From Escherichia coli (GTDB lineage: Bacteria; Pseudomonadota; Gammaproteobacteria; Enterobacterales; Enterobacteriaceae), in assembly GCF_048403405.1 (NCBI RefSeq), contig NZ_CP183129.1: DNA of 64,000 bases. The stretch is one strand, 5' to 3'. The translations under genes and the position numbers were made by a program. How positions within the stretch are numbered: the first letter of the stretch is position 1; every line of letters begins with the position of its first letter. Under the pieces are notes generated by a model. That model was not told where the DNA came from. It saw nothing but the letters and a program-made list of their open reading frames with translations, and searched no databases. Below are positions 51,180 to 52,270 of the stretch, piece by piece.

Positions 51180-51466
51180 GGCTTAGGTACCTCCCGGTTT
51201 GGCCGGGAGTTACATGACCTGAAATTCTGTATTTCGTTGCTACATTCATTCAAACCACCTGTAACAAAAAGCTGCCTTTGACGATCTATTGCTATAAATA
51301 AGTGTTCTTTTTTCTTTAATTGTTTATTTATTTTATAATAGTTAAGTTTAGCTAATCAGAATGAGCTATTTTTGATAGTTCATCCTGTGGCGTTGTCATT
51401 AAACTTATATTGTAAATTGCTTAGATTCAAATGAGATAATAATTTTGTTGAAATATGAGGTGGGAG

Positions 51467-52270
51467 ATGTTTTCTACAAACTTAATACAGAGTGATTATG
51501 GTAATTTAAATATTAAAAACCTTGCCTTCGACTCTTTCAAAGAAAGACTGCAGTCTACCATGACAGCACTCACTTTCTTTATATCAACGGGGCAATGTGA
51601 CTGCGATGAAATAGCAGAATCAAACTTTAATTATATGATTGCCTATATGTCTAACATTAACTATGATGCCTCAAAGCCAGGAGCGCCAGTACTTAGTTTT
51701 GATACATATCTGCAGGACAATGTTAAATATAGAGTAATAATTAATAATCTTTATGGTAGTGAAATTCGGATAAGAGGTATAAATAAAGATTTTATTGGAA
51801 TGGATGTCACTTCTGTATTTCGCCCAGAAAAAATGACCAATTTGATCAATATAAAAAACAGGTTGGTTATTCACTATTTAAGGACTATATACTATGAACA
51901 AAATTATATACATCCTGTCGGGAGCATTTTTGCTGCGATTCAAAAAAATGAGAGTCTCCTAAAGTTTCCTTCGATAATATCAATGCTTAATGTCAATCTT
52001 CTTTTTAATCCACTGAATCTTCCGGGAATGGGAAGTGGTGTGCTTGAAGAGATTATGAGTATTTCAGATAGTTCACTTAGAAAACGTCTTGGGTATGAGG
52101 TTTTAAGCTTTTCGCTACAGGCACATTCATTGAGTCAGGAATGTATCGATAAGTTAGCCATTTTTTTCGCTGACGATCTGTTTAAATATGAGTCAGTATG
52201 CATCGCCGCGATGGAACATTTAAAAAGTAAGGCAACGGCCCCTATACAAAACGGACCGTTGCCAGCATAA
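51467..52270 (+). CDS. ydjO: uncharacterized protein encoded in an AT-rich islet
   Basis: 267 aa from MFSTNLIQSDY after GAGGTGGGAG SD; coding and upstream sequence markedly AT-rich versus flanks. Confidence 0.7.
   Translation: MFSTNLIQSDYGNLNIKNLAFDSFKERLQSTMTALTFFISTGQCDCDEIAESNFNYMIAYMSNINYDASKPGAPVLSFDTYLQDNVKYRVIINNLYGSEIRIRGINKDFIGMDVTSVFRPEKMTNLINIKNRLVIHYLRTIYYEQNYIHPVGSIFAAIQKNESLLKFPSIISMLNVNLLFNPLNLPGMGSGVLEEIMSISDSSLRKRLGYEVLSFSLQAHSLSQECIDKLAIFFADDLFKYESVCIAAMEHLKSKATAPIQNGPLPA

Follow-up and report, generated by a model that had tools for sequence, protein, structure and literature searches.

Between the convergent genes cedA and tcyP of Escherichia coli, the window that we analysed (the whole stretch of 64 kb) holds a small AT-rich islet with a single gene, ydjO. 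We consider it highly probable that this islet is a xenogeneic cassette of 1109 bp, which was inserted once in Escherichia, is bound by H-NS and carries a dispensable gene restricted to the genus.

The islet stands apart from its surroundings in composition. Its GC content over positions 51230-52270 is 0.334, compared with 0.495 for the whole 64-kb window and with 0.515, 0.528 and 0.517 for cedA, tcyP and katE, in keeping with the initial annotation, which had described this stretch as far more AT-rich than cedA and tcyP (the AT-rich string quoted there as an example lies at ~51330-51377). Among windows of 1041 bp taken across the 64 kb (mean GC 0.495, s.d. 0.046), the islet is the minimum, at z = -3.5. 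The edges are abrupt: GC drops from 0.51 at 50950-51249 to 0.28 at 51250-51549, and stands at 0.50-0.58 from 52150 on. The spacer upstream of ydjO (51250-51454) has a GC content of 0.263, and the whole islet, as delimited below (51162-52270), one of ~0.34. Codon usage is equally atypical. GC3 is 0.327 in ydjO and 0.523 +/- 0.067 in the 49 long ORFs of the comparison, and the CAI-like score of ydjO (0.591) is the lowest among these ORFs (0.720 +/- 0.047). The sliding-window and codon-usage checks proposed with the initial annotation thus return the islet as the GC minimum and ydjO as the most atypical of the 49 ORFs, and in both respects the islet lies below or unlike its host, as xenogeneic DNA does. 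A second AT-rich area, with <40% GC, is present at 59.1-62.2 kb, and the islet is not the sole AT-rich stretch of the window.

The order katE, cedA, ydjO, tcyP is the one that RefSeq annotates in E. coli genomes identical or near-identical to this one, and the features of the locus are collected in Table 1. The only ORF of at least 100 aa within the islet is ydjO, flanked by cedA and tcyP; an in-frame ATG upstream, at 51455, would extend its product to 271 aa. No tRNA was found in 45000-58000, no terminal repeats at the islet ends (51162 or 52270), and no Rfam family was matched. The earlier remark that mobility genes do not flank ydjO was borne out and can be widened, as integrase, tRNA and terminal repeats are all missing. 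The locus accordingly does not have the make-up of a classical genomic island or integrative element, with a mobility gene, a tRNA/tmRNA anchor and flanking direct repeats. IS1 and IS5 occur at the locus only sporadically, in other strains.

Table 1 The cedA-ydjO-tcyP locus and its features, in positions of the 64-kb window
Feature	Position	Strand	Remarks
katE	48472-50733	-	
cedA	50916-51179	+	Last 6 codons (from 51162) are of the islet haplotype
Islet	51162-52270		1109 bp; from alignment with the E2348/69 empty site and haplotype comparison across Escherichia and outgroups
Hairpin CTCCCGG-TTTG-GCCGGGAG	51191-51209	+	Directly 3' of the cedA stop; -23 kcal/mol, z = -2.9; presumably stands in as the cedA terminator; U-tract poor
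AT-rich spacer	51250-51454		GC 0.26; matches the published K-12 'promoter island' / H-NS-bound ydjO/cedA spacer
9-bp direct repeat TGACGATCT	51279-51287 and 52171-52179	+ (first copy)	
Inverted repeat CAGAATGAGCTATT-TTT-GATAGTTCATCCTG	51357-51387	+	14-nt arms
Predicted sigma-70-type promoter ATTGCT-16-AATAAT	51416-51443	+	Counterpart of K-12 ATGACT-16-AATAAT
Shine-Dalgarno GAGGTGGGAG of ydjO	51457-51466		
ydjO CDS	51467-52270	+	267 aa
A7 tract in ydjO	51942-51948		Frameshift site in other strains
T7 tract in ydjO	52161-52167		Frameshift site in other strains
Hairpin GGCAACGGUCC...GGGGCCGUUGCC, then UUACUUUUUAAAU	52231-52263	-	-22.4 kcal/mol, z = -2.7; with its U-rich tail the presumed tcyP terminator, inside the last 14 ydjO codons
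tcyP (ydjN)	52274-53665	-	Convergent with ydjO; 3 bp between the two stop codons

The exact limits of the islet are seen best against genomes in which the site is empty. In the alignment of occupied and empty haplotypes, normal similarity runs through CAGGAA (51156-51161), is gone from 51162, and returns at 52271 (AGAATTAACGG), 3 bp ahead of the tcyP stop. The right-hand limit of the initial annotation, 52270, was therefore accurate, being exactly the end of the ydjO stop codon; the left-hand one, about 51230, was not, as the islet begins earlier, inside the last codons of cedA. The 1109 bp of the islet genomes correspond to ~60 bp in empty-site genomes, which contain the tail of cedA (...QENEVEE*) together with a single bidirectional terminator hairpin. 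The cedA tail of this window reads QEGELTE*, compared with QENEVEE* in the empty-site genomes.

Both haplotypes are common in E. coli. A megablast search with cedA-ydjO-tcyP against 5426 complete E. coli genomes recovered the flanks in 5424 and the full islet in 4256, and the junction query from E2348/69 found the uninterrupted empty site in 1124, including E2348/69 itself and the type strain ATCC 11775; ydjO is thus absent from ~21% of complete E. coli genomes. Outside the species, a CedA-anchored scan with one genome per species gave 54 loci, 52 of which include tcyP. In 48 of these 52 the site between cedA and tcyP is empty, the genes being ~50-110 bp apart in Citrobacter, Salmonella, Enterobacter, Kluyvera, Leclercia, Atlantibacter and others. 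All non-Escherichia genomes recovered have the empty junction, and so do four Escherichia lineages (E. whittamii, E. sp. E1V33, SCPM-O-B-8794 and E69), whose flanks are only ~90% identical to the window and which are for this reason other Escherichia species. As a separate observation, the same junction in Siccibacter holds an apparent toxin-antitoxin pair.

The polarity of the event can be deduced from these haplotypes. Empty sites in E. coli and in other Escherichia have the QENE-type cedA tail and a terminator positioned as in the outgroups. Since the empty haplotype combines an outgroup-type cedA tail with the single bidirectional terminator, the ancestral state is absence, and the islet was inserted later. 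All islet carriers (E. coli, Escherichia sp. MOD1-EC7003 and E. albertii) have a cedA tail of the form QEGE[VL][TA]E* and the same right junction at the tcyP stop, which argues for a single insertion event. The horizontal acquisition proposed in the initial annotation is therefore supported by the orthologous junction, which 1124 E. coli genomes, four other Escherichia lineages and the outgroups have in the empty state; across the Enterobacteriaceae, the distribution that it had suggested checking shows empty junctions in the outgroups and a gene that is not universal even in E. coli.

Within Escherichia the gene has both distant and rearranged relatives. E. albertii has an orthologue of 257 aa at the same site, with 35% protein and 53% nucleotide identity, in an islet with a GC content of 0.34. 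Some strains have an intact gene (P0067, with 125 member sequences; loci L066 and L067), while in strain TW07627 an IS1 splits it, flanked by a target duplication of 9 bp, and the contigs of three other E. albertii assemblies break at the position of this IS1. MOD1-EC7003 keeps only the last 32 ydjO codons. Its deletion fuses exactly the two TGACGATCT copies (51279 and 52171 in the window), so that the loss is, judging from the junction itself, a microhomology deletion. A rare E. coli allele (P0004, locus L004) is a mosaic, in which a tract of ~620 bp, at ~51390-52010, has 69-87% identity and the surrounding flanks are 97-100% identical. This tract implies that a third, deeply diverged ydjO lineage must exist or have existed. 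An identity of 35% together with shared junctions is hard to date, as it requires evolution to have been very fast, or else a long-standing polymorphism exchanged between species.

No homologue beyond E. coli and E. albertii was found in a word-indexed search of 5.8 billion clusters, in a full HMMER pass over 1.84 billion representatives or in a profile search. The only distant match, P0033 (299 aa, E = 7e-36), proved to be an artefact: its contig is E. coli DNA in which every A and G has been exchanged, and once these are restored it matches window positions 50865-52905 with 96.8% identity over 2043 bp. Searches for a donor among phages and plasmids were likewise negative. No phage match was obtained, and the three matches in the plasmid collection are of chromosome size (4.8-4.9 Mb) and presumably represent chromosomes deposited as plasmids. 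In having no homologue outside a narrow clade, and in its raised rate relative to the neighboring core genes (see below), ydjO has the attributes of an ORFan. Such taxonomically restricted E. coli genes were reportedly described by Daubin and Ochman in 2004. Like them, ydjO is AT-rich and fast-evolving, with homologues confined to a narrow clade, and is often lost or broken; unlike them, it has a 35%-identical E. albertii orthologue with identical junctions, so that the ORF was kept over a long divergence.

Several lines of evidence argue that ydjO has served as a gene. At the composition of the islet, the chance of 267 open codons is ~1e-9. In a neutral, substitution-only simulation an open ORF survived in 1.6% of runs when divergence was 10% and in 0.025% when it was 20%; from 30% upwards, none of 20000 runs preserved it. 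Nucleotide divergence between the E. coli and E. albertii genes is 47%, and 65% of their residues differ, yet both ORFs are open. Between these species dN is 0.63 and dS ~1.7 (saturated) for ydjO, compared with 0.011-0.041 and 0.54-0.74 for its neighbors. Within E. coli, the dN/dS of ydjO is 0.15-0.25, and the comparison with E. albertii gives 0.37; that of the neighbors is 0.01-0.09 in most comparisons (0.01-0.07 within E. coli for katE, tcyP, ydjM and hxpB). Within E. coli, dN is 0.014-0.10 for ydjO versus 0.001-0.015 for the neighbors, and ydjO evolves 5-50 times faster than they do. Its nucleotide diversity in E. coli reaches 7%, or 14% with the mosaic allele. The annotated ATG follows a Shine-Dalgarno sequence in each of the two species. 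The open ORF in both species, the dN/dS values and the Shine-Dalgarno sequence together indicate that ydjO has been a coding gene under relaxed purifying selection.

The same gene is now decaying and dispensable. We took 23 evenly spaced islet-bearing E. coli genomes from the megablast ranking and scored 17 of them: ydjO was intact (267 aa) in seven, truncated at codon 261 in two, annotated as a pseudogene in six, and accompanied by IS1 or IS5 at the locus in two. The lesions are diverse. The O157:H7 gene has a -1 frameshift in the T7 tract, the O121 gene is also frameshifted, and four strains have a stop codon, which falls at codon 119 in the three that were translated, two of these also having A-tract indels. 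The database clusters give the same picture of decay, with 8291 full-length YdjO members and ~2500 of 161-165 aa. As a rough estimate from a small sample, ydjO is broken in roughly a third of islet carriers. That the ORF is mostly intact among carriers, with a dN/dS below 1, argues that ydjO is not simply junk.

The protein itself resembles nothing in the collections searched. YdjO gave no match above noise in Pfam, NCBIfam, PHROGs, PADLOC or the PDB sequences, and none of five YdjO family members matched the PADLOC anti-phage models; the initial annotation had likewise recognized no motif in the 267-aa product. The structure prediction and remote homology search that it had recommended led to no known family or fold. 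AlphaFold2 gave a pLDDT of 43 for the E. coli query and of 64 (pTM 0.63) for the E. albertii query. The latter, low-confidence model would begin with an N-terminal helix, continue with four to five long beta strands in a meander, a further helix and a disordered stretch, and end in a C-terminal helical bundle. YahL and YjfZ are like YdjO in length (264-271 aa), in being uncharacterised and in their reported restriction to E. coli/Shigella (PMC11057252). They were considered as paralogues of YdjO and rejected (pairwise BLASTP, E = 4 to 52); YjfZ belongs to DUF2686, and YdjO has no match to the corresponding PF10887. No ydjO phenotype was found in the literature search. A paper on the LTEE connects H2 production with SNPs in ydjO; the correlation concerns two clones, and we do not take it as functional evidence.

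Binding of the islet by H-NS is already documented. The 78 'promoter islands' listed for K-12 include the ydjO/cedA spacer (1811053, 320 bp), which is bound by H-NS in the ChIP-chip datasets of Kahramanoglou (MG1655) and Oshima (W3110), and is tied to genes predicted to be foreign by Nakamura 2004 and Lawrence-Ochman 1998 (PMC3661553, with the binding data in its Table 1). Genomic SELEX with RpoD places a promoter, ATGACT-16-AATAAT, upstream of K-12 ydjO, in a spacer flagged 'HNS' (PMC3946193). Binding is what the literature searched documents; derepression of ydjO in an hns mutant is not reported there. Our simple sigma-70 hexamer scan of the window allele found 3 promoter-like sites versus 5.0 +/- 2.5 in shuffles; this consensus scan differs from the PlatProm scoring that underlies the 'promoter island' concept, and it missed the promoter at 51416-51443. 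The K-12 spacer has its association with predicted foreign genes and with H-NS in common with the listed 'promoter islands'; a high density of promoter-like signals, as that concept implies, is not reproduced for the window allele by the simple hexamer scan. AT-rich, xenogeneic DNA bound by H-NS is said to have been described in enterobacteria in 2006 (Navarre, Lucchini, Oshima). The islet has the low GC, atypical codons, patchy distribution and published H-NS occupancy of such DNA; unlike it, the islet is very small (1.1 kb, one gene), without mobility genes or a tRNA, and sits between convergent core genes. In the transcriptome of an ExPEC strain, ydjN (tcyP) and ydjO are among the genes of the CysB regulon that are down-regulated in serum (PMC4145685). 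This change in common with tcyP and the regulon argues that ydjO is not always silent, although antisense read-through from tcyP is a plausible source of the signal.

Within the spacer, the 31-bp inverted repeat, which is unique in the window, is set apart by its conservation. All E. coli alleles and E. albertii share an identical 20-nt core in it (51361-51380), whereas the spacer around it is only ~50% identical between the species and differs in length (162 vs 287 nt). The repeat can fold as a 14-bp hairpin, with 94.6% of cells paired across four haplotypes, a number too small for the covariation support to reach significance. From this pattern, the repeat could be a candidate operator or a 5' leader hairpin. 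The two remaining hairpins of the islet (51191-51209 for cedA and 52231-52263 for tcyP) presumably re-equipped both neighbors with terminators.

Other explanations of the locus have to be weighed. Were ydjO ancestral to Escherichia or older, the empty sites in B2 E. coli and in other Escherichia would be secondary deletions. The early-branching E. albertii indeed carries the gene at the same junctions, and MOD1-EC7003 provides a genuine secondary deletion. But that one real deletion leaves a scar and an islet-type cedA tail, whereas the empty sites have the QENE.. tail and the intact bidirectional terminator of the outgroups (Citrobacter, Salmonella), which deletion cannot recreate; moreover, no outgroup has the gene. 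We regard an ancestral ydjO as very unlikely. It is scarcely credible, in turn, that ydjO is not a real gene, and that a stretch of AT-rich spacer, or an ORF arisen de novo, was annotated by default. Such a proposal can draw on the lack of homologues and domains, the low-confidence models (pLDDT 43 and 64), the frequent pseudogenes and the H-NS-bound state of the DNA, but it has to contend with the improbability of 267 open codons, with an openness in two species at 47% divergence that was never reproduced neutrally, with a dN/dS below 1, and with Shine-Dalgarno sequences placed correctly ahead of the ATG in both.

A further proposal would see in YdjO an accessory protein that is in use and under diversifying selection, of the phage-defence, antagonism or immunity type, with alleles exchanged among Escherichia and an inverted-repeat switch acting over default H-NS repression. 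Evolution that is fast but constrained (dN/dS 0.15-0.37), an ORF kept despite 47% nucleotide divergence, the deep allele classes, mosaic allele and polymorphic presence, the upstream 20-nt core invariant between species, and the apparent toxin-antitoxin pair at the same junction in Siccibacter are all consistent with this role. It remains unlikely in our judgment, as PADLOC, PHROG, Pfam and structural comparisons gave no match for YdjO, and the gene stands alone without a partner, is broken in about a third of sampled carriers and missing from whole lineages, never exceeds a whole-gene dN/dS of 1, and has no phenotype in the literature searched. More doubtful again is its most specific form, in which YdjO would be a single-gene conflict module of novel fold, whose diverged alleles are shuffled by recombination through cedA/tcyP and whose expression is gated by the inverted repeat over H-NS.

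In the reading that we favor, a xenogeneic cassette (51162-52270, ~34% GC) would have been inserted once in Escherichia into the terminator region between the convergent cedA and tcyP genes, displacing the ancestral bidirectional terminator and the last cedA codons and supplying a hairpin of its own for each neighbor. As it has no mobility functions, the cassette most likely moves among Escherichia by homologous recombination through the flanking core genes, and recombination via cedA/tcyP would explain the shared junctions, the persisting empty haplotype and the mosaic alleles. H-NS binds the cassette, as the published ChIP-chip data show, because it is AT-rich, and probably keeps the sigma-70 promoter ahead of ydjO mostly inactive. 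From its conservation, the 31-bp inverted repeat would be a further, specific control element. The gene would encode a real cytoplasmic protein of ~260 aa, found only in Escherichia and kept open by selection over a long divergence.

The kind of feature described here is known, and the foreign, H-NS-bound status of ydjO has been published. What we add to this is incremental. The islet now has exact boundaries and an ancestral empty haplotype of known frequency; ydjO has a divergent orthologue in E. albertii and a spectrum of decay; and the locus shows a conserved inverted repeat and an arrangement of terminators in which the presumed one of tcyP falls within the 3' end of ydjO. The results have a bearing on the use of ydjO as a marker. 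Together with YahL and YjfZ it has been proposed as a universal 'conserved signature' qPCR target for E. coli/Shigella, and of the three it was the weakest, with 93% detection and r = 0.65 with CFU (PMC11057252). Unlike the 'signature protein' of that description, ydjO is missing from 21% of complete E. coli genomes and has a divergent homologue in E. albertii. Since the 1124 of 5426 complete genomes without it include the type strain and E2348/69, the assay would miss a major lineage, and this absence may explain the weaker performance of the marker. As a biological finding the locus matters little, being a textbook case of an AT-rich, H-NS-bound, horizontally acquired orphan gene. It does provide a clean natural series (the empty site, the intact insertion, the mosaic, the microhomology deletion, the IS insertions and the point pseudogenes), and these states are usable for studying the life cycle of an orphan gene.

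The gene ydjO has been proposed as a conserved signature qPCR marker for E. coli/Shigella (PMC11057252), with a detection rate of 93%, the lowest in that study. It is missing from 1124 of the 5426 complete E. coli genomes, the type strain ATCC 11775 and E2348/69 among them, and the published forward primer carries a one-base mismatch to the ydjO allele of the window (51467-52270). The frameshifts in B1_2, EF7-18-58 and O157:H7 fall at the A7 and T7 tracts of the gene, which are most likely mutational hot spots; as an alternative reading, the tracts may provide on/off switching.

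In E. coli ES4 (NZ_CM184348.1), the segment chbF-katE-cedA-ydjO is replaced by two copies of IS1 and gene fragments; this rearrangement is an IS1-associated deletion with its endpoint just short of tcyP. Other E. coli strains (genome matches H16 and H18) have IS1 or IS5 (ISKpn26) at the islet. The E. albertii locus (L063 and L066) lacks katE between chbG (ydjC) and cedA. The ydjO-like gene of E. albertii TW07627 is split by IS1 with a 9-bp duplication (GGAACACCG), and the contigs of three further E. albertii assemblies break at the same point.

One protein from the database searches, P0033, resembled a remote homologue of YdjO (E = 7e-36). Its source, contig 56313 of the public Logan assembly SRR33321306 (L062), is E. 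coli cedA-ydjO-tcyP DNA in which A and G are interchanged throughout: once the exchange is reversed, the contig aligns to window 50865-52905 with 96.8% identity across 2043 bp. P0033 was therefore rejected as a data artefact. Such a contig could lead homology searches astray.

The islet is not the only AT-rich part of the window. A second strongly AT-rich area (59100-62200, GC 0.36-0.40), probably another acquired islet, codes for an ankyrin-repeat protein and for one that resembles the ShET2 enterotoxin (Pfam Toxin_15, E = 3e-45). Five short stretches also fall below a GC of 0.36 in 300-bp windows.

Coordinates of ydjO homopolymer tracts and of features in other AT-rich parts of the window
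Feature	Position	Strand	Remark
A7 tract in ydjO	51942-51948		frameshift site in other strains
T7 tract in ydjO	52161-52167		frameshift site in other strains
ORF	59601-60053	-	within AT-rich area 59100-62200
ORF	60019-61500	-	within AT-rich area 59100-62200
Short stretch	12841-13141		GC < 0.36
Short stretch	32511-32871		GC < 0.36
Short stretch	38751-39221		GC < 0.36
Short stretch	43481-43801		GC < 0.36
Short stretch	58151-58581		GC < 0.36

In Siccibacter colletis (L054 4347-5046), the convergent cedA/tcyP junction is filled by a different insert of 911 bp. Its two ORFs are short, of 63 and 120 aa, and, judged by eye, look like a HigB/HigA-type toxin-antitoxin pair. The same junction holds a 357-bp insert in Klebsiella indica and inserts of ~250 bp in Intestinirhabdus alba and Enterobacteriaceae bacterium LSJC7. 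The cedA/tcyP junction seems to receive insertions repeatedly.
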